Positions 49,564 through 55,121 of a stretch of DNA of 62,740 nucleotides are shown piece after piece (within the stretch, counting starts at the first letter, position 1; each line of letters starts with the position of its first letter). The stretch is from Vicinamibacteraceae bacterium. Lineage in GTDB: Bacteria; Acidobacteriota; Vicinamibacteria; Vicinamibacterales; UBA8438. A model generated the notes under the pieces. The model was not told the DNA's origin. It saw only the letters and a list, made by a program, of their open reading frames with translations, and did no database searches. The position numbers and the translations under genes are program-made. Location of the stretch: positions 33,398-96,137 of the forward strand of contig JAAXGX010000142.1 of NCBI GenBank assembly GCA_012271165.1. Direction: 5' to 3'.

Positions 49564-50901
49564 ATGGACGATCATGGGCGGCGCGTCTACGACTCCATTC
49601 TCGGCCTGCTTTCCAGCGCCGACAACCCCACCCCGCTGGTGCGCCTGAACCACGTGACGCCGTTCCGCGACACGCAGGTGTACGCCAAGCTCGAGTGGTA
49701 CAACCCGTTCGGCGCCGTCAAGGACCGCGTGGCGGCCAACCTCGTCGACGACGGCGAGGCGCGCCGCACGGTGCAGGCGGACCAGAAGCTGGTGGAACCG
49801 ACCTCCGGGAACACCGGCATGGCGCTGGCCATGATCGCGAACGCGAAAGGCTACACGCTCACCACGCCGTTGTCGAGCGAGATCCCGCTCGAGAAGCGCA
49901 CCATGCTGCGCTTCTTCGGCGCGGACGTCATGGAGCTCGAGGACACGCTGTGCCCGGCTCCGGGGGCGCCCGAGGGCGCCATCGCAAAGGCGATGGAGAT
50001 CGCCGACCGGCCCGACTTCCACATGCTGAACCAGTACGCCAACGAAGCGAATCCGGAGGCGCACTACAAGACGACGGGACCGGAGATCTGGCGCCAGACC
50101 GACGGCCGGGTGACGCACTTCGTGGCCGGTCTCGGCACCTGCGGCACCATCACCGGCACCGGGCGCTTCCTCAAGGCGCAGCGCCCCTCCGTCCAGGTGC
50201 TGGGCGTGCACCCGACCGAGGGCCATGACATTCCCGGGGTCCGCAGTCTCCGCCAGCTGCAGCAGACGAAGCTCTTCTTCCCCGACGAGTACGACGGGCT
50301 GGTCGAGGTGCAGAACCAGACGGCCTTCGACCTCTGCCTCCGCCTGAACCGGGAGGAAAGCATCGTCGCCGGGCCCAGCTCGGCCATGGCCCTGCAGGGC
50401 GCCTTCGAGCTCGTGCCCGATGCGCCCGGCAACGTCGTGGTCGTGATCTTTCCCGACAACGCCTTCAAGTACGCGTCGTCGGTGGTCAGGCATCTGCCGG
50501 GGCTCGCGGCGCGGCCGGCCAGGCCCGCGGGCCGCGACCCGCTGCTCGAGGCAATGCGGGAGAACGTGCGCGGCAACGCCGATCTGACGGTCGACGTCGA
50601 GGCCGCGCACGCGCAGCTGCAGAACGGCAGGCCGTTCGTCATGGACGTGCGGCCGCGCGAGCAGTACCTGGAGGCGCACATTCCCGGCGCCGTCAGCATG
50701 CCGCTCGCCGAGCTCGGCGCCGATCATGCGGCGCTGCCGGCGGATCGCGACGCGCCGATTCTCAGTGTCTGCCAGCGCGGGAACGCCTCGCTCTCGGGCC
50801 TGCTGTTTCTCAAGTCGCTGGGCTATCGCAACGTCCGCAGCATCACGGGGGGCACGCTGGCCTGGCGCGAGAAGGGGTTCGCCACCGACTCGGGTGCGTA
50901 G
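49564..50901 (+). CDS. cysM: CysM-type PLP-dependent cysteine synthase fused to a C-terminal rhodanese domain
   Basis: PLP-Lys context NPFGAVKDRVA, TSGNTGMALA, GLGTCGTITG. The C-terminal about 110 aa is rhodanese with active-site loop CQRGNAS. Confidence 0.85.
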   Translation: MDDHGRRVYDSILGLLSSADNPTPLVRLNHVTPFRDTQVYAKLEWYNPFGAVKDRVAANLVDDGEARRTVQADQKLVEPTSGNTGMALAMIANAKGYTLTTPLSSEIPLEKRTMLRFFGADVMELEDTLCPAPGAPEGAIAKAMEIADRPDFHMLNQYANEANPEAHYKTTGPEIWRQTDGRVTHFVAGLGTCGTITGTGRFLKAQRPSVQVLGVHPTEGHDIPGVRSLRQLQQTKLFFPDEYDGLVEVQNQTAFDLCLRLNREESIVAGPSSAMALQGAFELVPDAPGNVVVVIFPDNAFKYASSVVRHLPGLAARPARPAGRDPLLEAMRENVRGNADLTVDVEAAHAQLQNGRPFVMDVRPREQYLEAHIPGAVSMPLAELGADHAALPADRDAPILSVCQRGNASLSGLLFLKSLGYRNVRSITGGTLAWREKGFATDSGA

Positions 50902-50904
50902 GCG

Positions 50905-51378
50905 ATGGCGCAGCCGACGCTCACGCTGCGGGCCGCGGCCGACAGCGGCATTCGCCGGCACGGCCGCGAGACGTACCCCCACGAGTGCTGCGGGGCGCTC
51001 ATCGGCCGCGGCCGGCAGGTAATGGAGGCGCTGGCCCTGCCCAACGTCACCGAGGAGAGCTCCCGGCGGCGGTTTCGGGTCCGGCCGTCCGACTATCTGG
51101 CGGCCGAGCGCCGCGCGAGCGAGCTGGGCGCGGAGCTGCTGGGGTTCTATCACTCGCATCCGGACCACCCTGCACGTCCGTCGCAGTACGATCTGGACCA
51201 CGCGTGGCCCGTGTTCGCCTACGTGATCGTGGCGGTCGAGGAGGGGCAGCCGGGGACGATGACCTCGTGGCGCTTGCGAGAGGATCGGTCGGCGTTCGAC
51301 GAGGAGCGAATCGCGGTGGAGCCGGGCGGCCCCCCGCGGAGCGAGACAGGCGAGAGACCATGCCAACCAGGATTCTGA
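50905..51378 (+). CDS. mec: JAMM/MPN+ metalloprotease (Mec-like)
   Basis: HECCGALIG (Glu) and FYHSHPDHPARPSQYD (H-x-H-x7-S-x2-D) JAMM motif. Confidence 0.88.
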   Translation: MAQPTLTLRAAADSGIRRHGRETYPHECCGALIGRGRQVMEALALPNVTEESSRRRFRVRPSDYLAAERRASELGAELLGFYHSHPDHPARPSQYDLDHAWPVFAYVIVAVEEGQPGTMTSWRLREDRSAFDEERIAVEPGGPPRSETGERPCQPGF

Positions 51379-51644
51379 TTCCGACGCCGTTGCGCGTCTA
51401 CACCGGCAAGCAGGACGTCGTCGAGGCCGAGGGCGGCACGGTCGGCGAGCTGCTGGCGAACATGACCGATACCTACACGGACCTGCGCAAGCACCTGTAC
51501 ACGGATGACGGCCGGCTGCGCAGCTTCGTGGCGATCTACGTCAACGACGACGACATCCGCTTCCTCGACAAGGAGGCGACGCCGGTCAAGGAAGGCGATA
51601 CCGTCAGCATCATCCCGTCGGTGGCGGGCGGGAGGGCGTCGTGA
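51360..51644 (+). CDS. cysO: ThiS/MoaD-fold sulfur-carrier protein (CysO-like) with a three-residue extension after the Gly-Gly
   Basis: 94 aa, beta-grasp pattern (VNDDDIRFLDKEATPVKEGDTVSIIPSVAGG-RAS). The start overlaps the JAMM gene by 19 nt and the stop overlaps the moeZ GTG. Confidence 0.8.
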   Translation: MPTRILIPTPLRVYTGKQDVVEAEGGTVGELLANMTDTYTDLRKHLYTDDGRLRSFVAIYVNDDDIRFLDKEATPVKEGDTVSIIPSVAGGRAS

Positions 51645-52813
51645 CGGTCGCCGCCGCGCCGCCGGCGCTGAGCAACGCGGAGGTCGCCCGCTACAGCCGG
51701 CATCTGATCATGCCGGAGGTCGGCATGGACGGGCAGCTCAAGCTGAAGGCGGCCAGCGTGCTCTGCATCGGGGCCGGCGGGCTGGGCTCGCCCGTGGCGA
51801 TGTATCTGGCCGCGGCCGGCGTCGGCCGGCTCGGCATCGTCGACTTCGACGTGGTCGACTACAGCAATCTGCAGCGGCAGGTGATTCACGGGACGCCGGA
51901 CGTCGGGCGGCCGAAGCTCGAGTCGGCGCGCGACAGCCTGCAGGCGATCAATCCCGAGGTGCACGTCGAGACCCACGAGGTCGCGCTCTCGTCGGGCAAC
52001 GCGCTTGAGGTGCTGGGCGGCTACGACGTCATCGTCGACGGCACCGACAACTTCCCGACGCGGTATCTCGTCAACGACGCCTGCGTGCTGCTCGGCAAGC
52101 CGAACGCCTACGGCAGCATCTTCCGCTTCGAGGGGCAGGCCTCGGTGTTCGCCGCCAAGGACGGGCCGTGCTACCGCTGCCTCTATCCCGAGCCCCCGCC
52201 GCCGGGGCTCGTGCCGAGCTGCGCCGAGGGGGGCGTGCTCGGGATACTGCCCGGCGTGGTCGGCACCATCCAGGCGACCGAGGCGGTCAAGCTCATCATG
52301 GGCGTCGGCGAGCCGCTCGTCGGCCGCTTCCTCGTCTACGACGCGCTCCGCATGCGCTTCCGCGAGCTGAAGCTCCGCAGGGACCCCGACTGCCCCGTCT
52401 GCGGCGACAACCCGAGCGTCACGGCGTTGATCGACTACGAGCAGTTCTGCGGCGTGACGCCCGCGGCCCCGGCTGCCGACTCGTCCGCGGGGGCGGACGA
52501 CGACGCGACCGTCGAGCAGCTCAAGGCGAGCATCGACCGCCAGGACGGCGTCTTCATCCTCGACGTCCGCGAGCCGCAGGAGTACCAGATCTGCGCCATT
52601 CCCGGCTCGACGCTCATTCCGCTCGGCGACCTCCCCGGCCGCCTCCACGAGCTGGCGGGACGCGGCGAGATGATCGTCCACTGCAAGTCGGGCGCCCGCA
52701 GCGCCAAGGCGGTCAAGCTGCTCCGCGACGCCGGCTTCGCCCAGGCGAAGAACCTGCGCGGCGGCATCCTGCGCTGGATCGACGCCGTCGACCCGTCGCT
52801 GCCGAAGTACTGA
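51641..52813 (+). CDS. moeZ: MoeB/ThiF-type E1-like adenylyltransferase fused to rhodanese (MoeZ-like)
   Basis: RYSRHL, GAGGLGSP nucleotide loop, CxxC pairs (CYRCLYP, CPVCG), C-terminal rhodanese with HCKSGARS loop. Confidence 0.9.
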   Translation: MTVAAAPPALSNAEVARYSRHLIMPEVGMDGQLKLKAASVLCIGAGGLGSPVAMYLAAAGVGRLGIVDFDVVDYSNLQRQVIHGTPDVGRPKLESARDSLQAINPEVHVETHEVALSSGNALEVLGGYDVIVDGTDNFPTRYLVNDACVLLGKPNAYGSIFRFEGQASVFAAKDGPCYRCLYPEPPPPGLVPSCAEGGVLGILPGVVGTIQATEAVKLIMGVGEPLVGRFLVYDALRMRFRELKLRRDPDCPVCGDNPSVTALIDYEQFCGVTPAAPAADSSAGADDDATVEQLKASIDRQDGVFILDVREPQEYQICAIPGSTLIPLGDLPGRLHELAGRGEMIVHCKSGARSAKAVKLLRDAGFAQAKNLRGGILRWIDAVDPSLPKY

Positions 52814-52814
52814 T

Positions 52815-54026
52815 TCAGAAGTCGACCGTGCCGGGCTCGACGTAGACCATCTCCATCCGCAGGCCCGCGCGGTCCACTTGCGGCTGTGACGGGAGGGTTC
52901 TCAGCGCTGCTGCGGGCGCCGACGCGGTCAGCGCTGCGGCCAGCGCATCGACCGCGTCGTCGCGGGCGACTTCCCTGCGCCTGAATTGCCGCAGCATTTC
53001 CTCTATCTCCCGCTCGGCTGACGGCCGGATTCGCTCGAGCAACCCGATCCGTTCCCGGAAGCCTTCCTCCTGCTTCTTGTTGTGCTCCATCGGGCGACGC
53101 CCGGCGAACGCCCAGAAGCAGACTTCCGGGTGGATCTCGCGAACGATCCGCCGCACCTTGGCGTCGTCGCGCAGCAACCGATCCACCTCTCGGCACCTGG
53201 GAAGGATGGCGAACGCCTGCCTGCTCAGCGCTTTGCCGGTCGACTCGCGGCTGAGGCGCTTGGCGTCCTCGTAGTCGACTGCGTCCAGCACCGGCCGCGC
53301 CGGCGCCGGGAAGACGCTGCTCGCGCGGCGGCCGCCGAGTGCCCGGCGGGCCATCTGGTCGCACTCGCGAGGTCCAGGTCCGTCCGGCAGTCCGATTGGG
53401 ATGTCGACGAAGACGCGAGCGGGCTCGCTCGTTTCGGCTACCAGGTCGGCGAGCGTGCGAACGATGCCCCAACGGGATCGACCGGACGGCTCCAGGGCGA
53501 CGAAGAACCAGCCCGCGGGACAGCCGTCGACGCCGATCGTGATGGCTGGCGTGTCGGCGGCAGCGGACGGACGCGGGTTCGTCGGTTCCGGCTCGACCGC
53601 TGCGGCGACCCACCGCTCGACGTGCCCGGCGAACTCGTCGAAGTCGTCGAGCGGGGCGCCGAGCGTGGCGGCTACGCGGTCGACATCGATGTCGAGATAC
53701 CCGTGCACCAGCACGTTGCGGAAGCCGGCGATGCCGCGGAACCGCCTGCCGAAGGCGGGCGGCAAGACGTTCGCCTCGACCAGGCAGTCGATGGAGGAGC
53801 CGTAGTTGGCCGGGTCGAGCCCTGCGGCGGAGCTGAGATGGCTCGCGATGTCGAGGGCATTCTGCGCGCAAAGCTGAAGGCCGCGTTCCATGGCCCACAG
53901 CCGGTCGGAATCGACGCGGAGCGCCTCGGGCGACACCCCGGCGTGCCTGCGCAGGCCGGCGACAGCCCTGCGCAGGGCGGCGAGGTGCCGGTCCACCACG
54001 CGCCGATCGGGCCGGCCCGGCGTCAA
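52815..54026 (-). CDS. HepT (DUF86) toxin domain fused to a C-terminal DUF429-like domain
   Basis: Residues about 1-135 carry the R-x4-H-x-Y HepT motif (GFRNVLVHGY). Residues about 150-403 start ITIGVDGCPAGWFFVAL, the DUF429-type N-terminus (by recall). No in-frame start codon lies in the linker. The TTG start overlaps the MNT stop (TTGA). Confidence 0.7.
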   Translation of the reverse strand: MTPGRPDRRVVDRHLAALRRAVAGLRRHAGVSPEALRVDSDRLWAMERGLQLCAQNALDIASHLSSAAGLDPANYGSSIDCLVEANVLPPAFGRRFRGIAGFRNVLVHGYLDIDVDRVAATLGAPLDDFDEFAGHVERWVAAAVEPEPTNPRPSAAADTPAITIGVDGCPAGWFFVALEPSGRSRWGIVRTLADLVAETSEPARVFVDIPIGLPDGPGPRECDQMARRALGGRRASSVFPAPARPVLDAVDYEDAKRLSRESTGKALSRQAFAILPRCREVDRLLRDDAKVRRIVREIHPEVCFWAFAGRRPMEHNKKQEEGFRERIGLLERIRPSAEREIEEMLRQFRRREVARDDAVDALAAALTASAPAAALRTLPSQPQVDRAGLRMEMVYVEPGTVDF

Positions 54027-54490
54027 GACCGCCGGTCCTCTCCGGCCGCGAAGCGGCGGGCGGCGTCCATCTTGTCGAGTTGCGGCAGGAAATCGAAGTA
54101 GCGCGAGAGCGCGTAGCCGGCGCGCGTCGTCGTTGCCTGCAGGTCCCGGGTGACGAGCCGGACGCCGTCGCGCAGGACCCGGTGGTAGAGCAGCGGCGGC
54201 GCCTCGTTCAGCACGACGACGTCGACGTCGCTAGCGCCGAGCGCGTCCATCAGGACGGTCGTCAGCTCCGCGCGATAGCCCCAATGGCCCTCGTCGGCGA
54301 GCGACTTGTCGATGTAGACGGCCACGTCGACGTCGCTCTGGCCGTGGGCATCGCCGCGCGCTTGCGACCCGAACAGATAGGCCTCGAGGATCTCCCCCCG
54401 CGGTTCGAGCGCACGGGTCAGGCGTGCGACGAGCTTCGCCGAGTCGCGGCTCGTGCAACCCATCCCGCTCATCATGCCATCATGTGGCAT
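54023..54490 (-). CDS. MNT-type minimal nucleotidyltransferase (antitoxin partner of HepT)
   Basis: GSQARGDAHGQSDVDVAVYI (G-S-x9-11-D-x-D) nucleotidyltransferase motif; 155 aa; several alternative Met starts within the first 10 codons. Confidence 0.85.
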   Translation of the reverse strand: MPHDGMMSGMGCTSRDSAKLVARLTRALEPRGEILEAYLFGSQARGDAHGQSDVDVAVYIDKSLADEGHWGYRAELTTVLMDALGASDVDVVVLNEAPPLLYHRVLRDGVRLVTRDLQATTTRAGYALSRYFDFLPQLDKMDAARRFAAGEDRRS

Positions 54491-54611: not shown

Positions 54612-54647
54612 GTGGCTTGGCGAACTCCTTCCACCGTGAGGGGGCGG

Positions 54648-55121
54648 ATGCTGCGACTGTCGAAGAAGGCCGACTACGCCCTGATTGCACTGAAGGACCT
54701 GGCGTCCAGTCCGCACGGCACGTCGTCGAGTGCGCGGGAGATCGCTGCGCGCTACAAGATTCCGGTGGAGTTGATGGCCAAGGTCCTGCAACGGCTCGCC
54801 AAGCGCGGGCTGCTTGCCTCCCACCAGGGGACGCGCGGCGGCTACCACCTCGCACGCCCGGCGGCCCGCATTTCGGTGGCGGATGTCGTGCAGGCCATCG
54901 ACGGGCCGGTCATGGTGACCGCCTGCTCCGACATCGACGAGAGCTGCGAGCAGTACCTGACGTGCAACGTGCGGGATCCGCTGTGGCGTCTGAAGGAGCG
55001 CATCGTGCACACGCTGGCGGAGTTCACCATCGACGAGCTCGCGCGTGACGACCTGCGGGCGCAGCTCCCGCTCGGTGCGCCCGCGGCGCCGGTGGCCTGG
55101 AGCACGCCGCCCGATCACTAG
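54648..55121 (+). CDS. iscR: Rrf2-family transcriptional regulator (IscR-like)
   Basis: MLRLSKKADYALIAL, wHTH, three-Cys cluster region (CSDIDESCEQYLTC). Start at ATG 54648 within the longer ORF. Confidence 0.85.
   Translation: MLRLSKKADYALIALKDLASSPHGTSSSAREIAARYKIPVELMAKVLQRLAKRGLLASHQGTRGGYHLARPAARISVADVVQAIDGPVMVTACSDIDESCEQYLTCNVRDPLWRLKERIVHTLAEFTIDELARDDLRAQLPLGAPAAPVAWSTPPDH

Follow-up and report, generated by a model that had tools for sequence, protein, structure and literature searches.

We analysed a 62,740-nt stretch of contig JAAXGX010000142.1 from a soil acidobacterium of the order Vicinamibacterales (the window, whose positions serve as coordinates throughout). Its reverse strand carries a two-gene module consisting of mntA, which encodes a minimal nucleotidyltransferase (MNT), and an overlapping open reading frame (ORF) of 403 amino acids (aa), in which a HepT/DUF86 HEPN RNase domain is joined by a linker to a DUF429 domain. 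An earlier reading made from the letters of the DNA (the sequence-only reading) had proposed that the pair represents a type VII toxin–antitoxin (TA) module with a fused toxin. The ORF list and the reverse-strand sequence place mntA, the TTGA overlap and the 403-aa ORF exactly where that reading had them (Table 1), and its assignments of MNT, HepT/DUF86 and DUF429 all hold in hidden Markov model scans against Pfam and NCBIfam.

Table 1 Features of the module and of the genes on either side of it, with predicted identities and the evidence used
Feature	Position	Strand	Evidence or remark
mntA, predicted minimal Pol-beta-type nucleotidyltransferase, putative type VII TA antitoxin, 155 aa	54023..54490	-	ORF list, Pfam, NCBIfam
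HepT–linker–DUF429 fusion ORF, 403 aa + stop	52815..54026	-	ORF list, Pfam, NCBIfam
TTGA overlap, TTG start of the fusion ORF on the TGA stop of mntA	54023..54026	-	sequence
Shine-Dalgarno-like GGAGAGGA within the mntA 3' end, 9 nt 5' of the fusion TTG	54036..54043	-	sequence; putative, by inference only
HepT/DUF86 HEPN RNase domain, residues 1–143	53598..54026	-	PF01934, NF047751, PDB, Foldseek
Rx4HxY motif, R103-N-V-L-V-H108-G-Y110	53697..53720	-	sequence
Pro/Ala-rich interdomain linker, residues 144–162	53541..53597	-	no in-frame start codon
DUF429 RNase H-like domain, residues 163–403	52818..53540	-	PF04250
MNT catalytic motif, G41-S42...D53-V-D55 (GSQARGDAHGQSDVDVAV)	54317..54370	-	translation
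moeZ-like ThiF+Rhodanese gene (context)	51641..52813	+	convergent with the fusion ORF, 1-nt gap
Rrf2/IscR-family regulator (context)	54612..55121	+	divergent from mntA across ~120–160 bp

The mntA product scores 80.7 bits against the NCBIfam MntA_antitoxin equivalog NF047752 (cutoff 60) and matches the Pfam families Polbeta (E = 2.9e-18) and NTP_transf_2 (E = 1.3e-10). Its identity amounts to 70–94% across all syntenic loci, and the GS...DxD motif (GSQARGDAHGQSDVDV) shows little or no variation among 15 orthologues, four of them from loci in which HepT has been deleted. The N-terminal half of the fusion protein matches Pfam HepT-like PF01934 over residues 20–134 (E = 4.7e-22) and the NCBIfam HepT_toxin equivalog NF047751 at 85.9 bits (cutoff 60). 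A sequence search of the PDB with this half returned HepT toxins only (6m6u, 5yep and 7ae9), and Foldseek superimposed it on solved HepT toxins, including AMPylated forms, with target-normalised TM-scores of 0.73–0.82. The catalytic motif that the sequence-only reading had located in GFRNVLVHGY is present as R103-x4-H108-x-Y110, the segment RNVLVHGY being aligned with RNIAVHDY of the Shewanella HepT SO_3166, and Rx4HxY is nearly invariant among the aligned fusion proteins that retain the region. Y110 is equivalent to the Tyr that is AMPylated by MntA in characterised type VII systems. In the AlphaFold2 model of the full fusion (mean predicted local distance difference test, pLDDT, of 87.7), pLDDT drops below 50 exactly over the Rx4HxY loop (residues 103–111, window 53694–53720) between confidently predicted flanking helices, in keeping with a mobile loop for catalysis and AMPylation.

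Judged by sequence-level criteria, the module is most likely a type VII MntA/HepT system, because (i) MntA and HepT both exceed their NCBIfam equivalog cutoffs and match the corresponding Pfam families, (ii) HepT superimposes on solved toxins and (iii) gene order and 4-nt overlap match those of a canonical pair (L049) whose HepT is 69% identical. All sequence-level hallmarks of such systems were found except a small, single-domain toxin. The known systems, of Shewanella oneidensis (SO_3165/SO_3166) and Aphanizomenon flos-aquae (MNT/HEPN; structures 5yep, 6m6u, 7bxo and 7ae2–7ae9), share with the module the upstream minimal nucleotidyltransferase with GS...DxD, the downstream DUF86 HEPN protein with Rx4HxY, the overlapping genes and the HepT fold. 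Their toxins measure ~130–157 aa, whereas the protein described here has 403 aa and carries a 240-residue DUF429 domain behind a disordered linker. A HepT-family toxin altered by gene fusion also occurs in FhepTA, a single-chain MNT–HEPN TA protein controlled by oligoAMPylation (NAR 2026, PMC13000451). In FhepTA, however, the antitoxin is joined to the toxin, while here the antitoxin is separate and the toxin is joined to an unrelated nuclease domain.

The C-terminal half matches Pfam DUF429 (PF04250) over residues 165–382 (E = 9.4e-57, 192.6 bits, cutoff 23) and along the full length of the profile (positions 1–212 of 214), in agreement with the family resemblance that had been noticed in the translation. 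Residues D167, D208, E297/H299/E301 and D357/D360 vary little or not at all across 68–104 sequences. The structural models place D167 on strand 1, D208 at the end of strand 4, E297/H299/E301 on a later strand–helix junction and D357/D360 on the C-terminal helix. A model of the DUF429 domain built from 104 sequences (pLDDT 96.9, predicted template modelling score 0.93) shows a beta-beta-beta-alpha-beta core. Its weak Foldseek matches are all RNase H-like and comprise the RuvC domain of IS621/ISCro4 (probability 0.8), RuvC and YqgF, followed by TEFM, the reverse transcriptase RNase H, PIWI and ASKHA kinases; a PDB sequence search with the DUF429 half gave no match.

DUF429 was previously placed in the RuvC/YqgF clade with predicted nuclease activity (Majorek et al. 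2014, PMC3985635), and the one member whose biochemistry has been reported is RelZ, the DUF429 domain of which hydrolyses RNA–DNA hybrids and R-loops (PMC4429107; PMC7591505). Based on the full-length Pfam match, the conserved acidic residues at RNase H-like positions, the published classification and the activity of RelZ, the DUF429 half is probably an active nuclease. RelZ (MS_RHII-RSD, MSMEG_5849 of Mycobacterium smegmatis) likewise holds DUF429 in a two-domain protein, the shared membership being drawn from Pfam assignments in the literature. Its partner domain is a RelA/SpoT (p)ppGpp synthetase whereas the partner here is a toxin RNase, and DUF429 is N-terminal in RelZ but C-terminal in the fusion. 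The family is large, with more than 4,000 representative clusters at E <1e-10 in a HMMER scan of 1.84 billion representatives.

The fusion is genuine, as the sequence-only reading had concluded from the linker. The stretch from residue 108 to residue 175 contains no in-frame ATG, GTG or TTG, and the frame runs without a stop up to codon 404. In a search of 5.8 billion proteins, the identical 403-aa protein was found on 4 contigs, together with ~32 further 90%-identity clusters of proteins of ~400 aa that are 63–95% identical, contain both Pfam domains and have the N-terminus MTPGRPDR in common; a sequencing or assembly artefact is ruled out by these contigs and clusters. The proteins are filed under names such as "DUF429 domain-containing protein" (in an Acidobacteriota metagenome-assembled genome, MAG) or "predicted RNase H-like nuclease/YutE". 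The full fusion is present in 7 GTDB species representatives at 69–90% identity, all of them Vicinamibacterales/Vicinamibacteraceae MAGs. Among the top 150 matches of the HMMER scan, one 50%-identity cluster covers residues 1–401, and the remaining matches extend over the DUF429 part only or the HepT part only. A Pfam scan of ten long relatives with an N-terminal extension before DUF429 detected HepT in none, five having other domains and five no recognisable N-terminal domain. The search for further fusions that the sequence-only reading had called for thus yielded no independent HepT–DUF429 fusion in another lineage, either among these top 150 representatives or among the ten extended proteins, and by its sequence distribution the architecture is confined to one uncultured Vicinamibacterales lineage.

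The closest relatives of the two halves are separate proteins. For HepT it is a 146-aa protein (P0144, 69% identity), the toxin of the ordinary two-gene MNT–HepT pair of L049, which lies in a different context; the closest DUF429 relatives stand alone. The L049 pair adjoins a 1976-aa protein with DEAD, Helicase_C, MZB (DUF1998) and Peptidase_S24 matches (L049 1–5441).

We compared nine fusions by the pairwise Nei–Gojobori method and obtained median ratios of nonsynonymous to synonymous substitution rates (omega) of 0.24 for HepT, 0.48 for the linker and 0.20 for DUF429, at synonymous divergences (dS) of up to ~1.2. By these ratios, both halves are under purifying selection and the linker is relaxed. 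The linker is also predicted with pLDDT <50 at residues 146–157 and varies in length among relatives. In most pairs (window 52818–54026 versus L001, L002, L008 and L010–L014), the HepT half has roughly 50% of the dS seen in the DUF429 half (for example 0.20 versus 0.39, 0.60 versus 1.19), for which codon bias, overlapping constraint and gene conversion with paralogous MNT–HepT pairs are candidate causes.

The 4-nt overlap between mntA and the downstream ORF, with a TTG or GTG start, recurs in the relatives examined, and the Shine-Dalgarno-like run is kept in a DNA alignment. The arrangement of the TTGA overlap suggests translational coupling of mntA and the fusion gene. Scans of the module for sigma-70 promoters and for terminators, neither designed for Acidobacteria, returned no promoter-like site and a single terminator-like site at chance level.

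Natural variants of the locus separate the two domains. In at least five relatives, distinct in-frame deletions have taken out the HepT catalytic motif and left the N-terminus (or the start codon) and the whole DUF429 domain in place; the deletions cover residues 2–103 in P0033, about residues 10–135 in P0035, about residues 21–147 in P0034, about residues 25–157 in P0037 and about residues 44–150 in P0040. The remaining DUF429 domains are 65–89% identical to that of the fusion, and DNA alignment shows clean junctions in two cases. In the four HepT-deleted loci examined, mntA is intact, GS...DxD is kept and so is the 4-nt overlap with the downstream ORF. The searches recovered only variants still encoding DUF429, and the excess of in-frame deletions is partly an effect of this ascertainment. 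DUF429 has been damaged as well. In L042 (6001–6422), the HepT frame is split into three segments by two frameshifts and DUF429 is replaced by other genes, with mntA intact at 71% identity. P0039 (328 aa; 4 contigs, one of 2.1 Mb) loses all similarity from about residue 270 onwards and terminates prematurely with HepT intact, apparently through a frameshift within DUF429. DUF429 is therefore not essential.

No MNT or HepT resembling this pair lies within 6 kb of the stand-alone DUF429 genes of other phyla, so that the combination of a stand-alone DUF429 gene with an MNT gene, for which the sequence-only reading had suggested a search, was not found at this distance. Across 32 stand-alone loci, no neighbour recurs within 3 kb beyond within-lineage synteny. 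Since five in-frame HepT deletions keep DUF429 and the stand-alone genes lack a recurrent partner, DUF429 is evidently autonomous and not intrinsically toxic alone. The pattern of losses marks the module as accessory and HepT as its expendable part.

The two closest stand-alone DUF429 genes (L006 4429–5813 and L054 4356–5804; 68–69% identity to the DUF429 domain of the window) each follow immediately on an HNH endonuclease gene. An HNH–DUF429 operon was considered and dropped, as the HNH proteins of the two loci belong to unrelated families (PF13391 versus PF01844). The L006 gene sits between Tn5-like transposases, and a PF05168 HEPN gene occurs near that of L054. Fusion partners in close DUF429 relatives are the RlaP Pol-beta nucleotidyltransferase, the MqsA antitoxin, PIN, AAA_21/AAA_15 ATPase and Schlafen AlbA_2 plus HATPase_c_4 domains, and also NUDIX, HD_4, the MGMT DNA-binding domain, HTH_32 and an SMP-30 lactonase-like domain (P0108, P0119, P0127, P0174, P0131, P0136, P0185, P0153, P0165, P0217, P0208, P0151 and P0063). 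Among these partners are several that are characteristic of conflict systems and several DNA-binding ones. In P0052 and P0057 (~60% identity), the N-terminal ~100 residues have no Pfam match and resemble by eye an MGMT/ATL-type winged-helix DNA-binding domain (…YRAVGAVIGRPARSVG…); in P0208, the C-terminal end is formed by a bona fide MGMT DNA_binding_1 domain.

In the three intact loci whose gene tables were examined (L001, L002 and L003), MNT and fusion genes are followed downstream by the ThiF–rhodanese gene. Upstream, L001 has the Rrf2 gene, and L002 and L003 have a gene for a large Ig-domain protein instead. The HepT-deleted loci occupy the same slot, with Rrf2 upstream in 4/4. Some intact loci hold a DNA methylase and small ORFs between fusion and ThiF–rhodanese gene, and the slot between the Rrf2 gene and moeZ is variable in relatives (L002 7470–9032, L004 6914–8534, L042 3518–9393), where it contains an N6/N4 DNA methylase, small ORFs without annotation, a GmrSD_N restriction nuclease, a PIN toxin or an AAA_16 ATPase. 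In the window, the gap of 1 nt to the moeZ-like stop is as the sequence-only reading had noted. That reading regarded the tight packing and the promoter region shared with iscR as consistent with insertion into a housekeeping locus. The variable slot bears this out in part; as to a recent event, we found no compositional anomaly, the guanine-plus-cytosine content of the module being equal to that of its flanks. Given this equality and the synteny across species with dS of up to ~1.2, the module is not a recent insertion, and on these sequence comparisons it is old and vertically inherited, an insertion being at best an ancient event. Beside the module (49564–52813) lies a CysO-type sulfur-carrier cysteine pathway cluster of PALP+Rhodanese, JAB/Mec-like, ThiS-like (ending in GG) and MoeZ-like ThiF+Rhodanese genes. 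In L001 (8398–10482), a single called protein of 694 aa combines the PALP, Rhodanese and ThiS parts, and the JAB gene is not listed.

We favour the interpretation that the module is a type VII toxin–antitoxin system with a two-headed HepT–DUF429 toxin, to which we assign a probability of roughly 0.6. Its observational basis comprises the domain identities, the intact catalytic motifs, a fusion that is genuine and old, purifying selection on both halves and a DUF429 domain that can be separated from HepT. In this scenario, the toxin gene would have merged in frame with a DUF429 gene in an ancestor of the lineage. Both genes of the module would be transcribed together, with translation coupled through the TTGA overlap, and MntA would transfer AMP onto Tyr110 beside the R103-x4-H108 site, thereby silencing the HepT RNase. 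Upon failure of AMPylation, the dimeric HepT domain would cut cellular RNA. DUF429 would act as a second, metal-dependent RNase H-like nuclease head, with RNA–DNA hybrids or other structured nucleic acid as probable substrate by analogy with mycobacterial RelZ. It would fold and work autonomously without being toxic alone, and the fusion would tether it to a dimeric, switchable RNase. The module also has an accessory, conflict-type flavour, in that its slot holds methylase, GmrSD and PIN genes in relatives and DUF429 is joined elsewhere to MqsA, PIN, AAA_21 and Schlafen domains.

The term "two-headed RNases" for HEPN RNases with a second nuclease domain, including RNase H-fold domains, dates from 2013 (Anantharaman et al., PMC3710099), and the DUF86 fusions in that survey were limited to MNT, a Holliday-junction-resolvase-like restriction endonuclease and methylases. 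The fusion fits the definition, with an intact Rx4-6H HEPN domain and a second nuclease domain, predicted to be active, in one polypeptide. It shares the pairing and the conflict-system context with RNase LS/RnlA-family HEPN proteins that have an N-terminal RNase H-fold domain, and with HEPN+RNase III proteins. It differs from the RNase LS type in its HEPN family (DUF86/HepT versus RNase LS), in its RNase H-like family (DUF429 of the RuvC/YqgF clade versus caulimovirus-type RNase H), in the opposite domain order and in its regulator (by family an AMPylating-type MNT versus RnlB). We found no description of a HepT–DUF429 architecture in the literature searched, including papers with DUF429 as a whole word. 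The fusion is present, unremarked, in public databases, and the two-headed concept is known for other HEPN families and not for HepT plus DUF429. The proposal of a possible new effector architecture is thus overstated, the underlying idea dating from 2013; the fusion adds a variant, confined to one lineage, to a kind already described.

Several points weigh against a two-headed toxin. Foldseek searches of PDB and BFVD with the DUF429 model gave no significant neighbour (best E = 0.018, none reaching 0.001), so that the assignment of the active site rests on conservation and topology. The RelZ DUF429 domain was reported to be inactive once separated from its partner domain (PMC7591505), which makes the transfer of its activity to the fusion uncertain. 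The fusion has no significant match in PADLOC-DB 2.0 (best PDC-S44, E = 0.0082, 13.4 bits), the MNT matches only models of the candidate system PDC-S09, neither protein matches PHROGs, and plasmid and phage records contain no copy of the fusion; DUF429 alone occurs on non-mobilisable megaplasmids and in one weak phage match. Toxicity, AMPylation, nuclease activity, the DUF429 substrate and the cooperation of the heads are steps that we infer from the observed features. Finally, an accidental union of two unrelated functions would explain just as well why HepT has been lost repeatedly and DUF429 kept. For the two-nuclease effector of the sequence-only reading, this means that the DUF429 assignment holds but that, with at least five HepT deletions leaving DUF429 intact, the effector is not the sole explanation of the locus. 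Under an accidental union, a housekeeping or repair nuclease, for example one that removes R-loops or RNA–DNA hybrids, would have been encoded downstream of a selfish MntA/HepT pair, and the genes would have become one when HepT lost its stop codon. The domains would act independently and the TA part would be an addictive passenger now being lost in several lineages. Apart from the deletions, this account is in line with DUF429 being mostly single-domain and in lineage-conserved, non-mobile contexts (PMC3985635), with the ordinary stand-alone toxin elsewhere that is the closest HepT relative and with the long, disordered and fast-evolving linker. We nevertheless consider it rather unlikely, as HepT evolves at an omega of 0.24 with its motif intact across ~32 clusters, no lineage was found in which the fusion is re-split into two genes, DUF429 is itself lost or frameshifted in L042 and P0039, and the closest stand-alone DUF429 genes reside in mobile or nuclease-rich surroundings (HNH, Tn5-like transposases).

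The retention of mntA in 4/4 HepT-deleted loci, with GS...DxD and the 4-nt overlap with the DUF429 ORF, raises the question of whether the action of MNT extends to DUF429, its nucleic-acid substrate or its product, HepT being one of two clients or an adaptor. The fusion of close DUF429 relatives to RlaP, another Pol-beta-type nucleotidyltransferase, points in the same direction. We regard such a partnership as improbable: the deletions may be too recent for decay of mntA, the sample is biased towards in-frame events since only DUF429-encoding variants were recoverable, no AMPylation-type motif is known in DUF429, and the stand-alone DUF429 genes of other phyla lack a similar MNT/HepT within 6 kb or a recurrent neighbour within 3 kb. 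There is likewise only a slim chance that MntA and DUF429 form a functional pair without HepT, in which MntA would nucleotidylylate DUF429 or tail or cap its nucleic-acid ends. If this were true, the HepT-deleted loci and the DUF429–RlaP fusions would represent one undescribed system of nucleotidyltransferase and RNase H-like nuclease, with the fusion as evolutionary link. Least probable, in our estimate, is a function in abortive infection or phage defence, in which a phage would free the nuclease from MntA, and phage transcripts and replication intermediates (RNA–DNA hybrids) would be destroyed. The variable slot with restriction and TA genes in relatives, the matches of MNT to the PDC-S09 models (E down to 1e-10) and the fusion of DUF429 to defence-associated domains elsewhere speak for such a function; the PADLOC and PHROGs results for the fusion and the housekeeping neighbours in the window speak against it. 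Phage defence would moreover be a biological role layered on the two-headed toxin and not a different mechanism.

The reach of the two-headed toxin is limited by the occurrence of the architecture in one uncultured acidobacterial lineage only. Within this lineage, the natural series of full fusions, HepT-deleted variants, frameshifted DUF429 and stand-alone genes provides ready-made genetic controls. The fusion offers a handle on DUF429, a family without a solved structure and with a single biochemically studied member. Should the two heads cooperate, no earlier type VII toxin would have been shown to pair an AMPylation-switched RNase with an RNase H-like nuclease, and the range of molecules held in check by MntA-type antitoxins would be wider.

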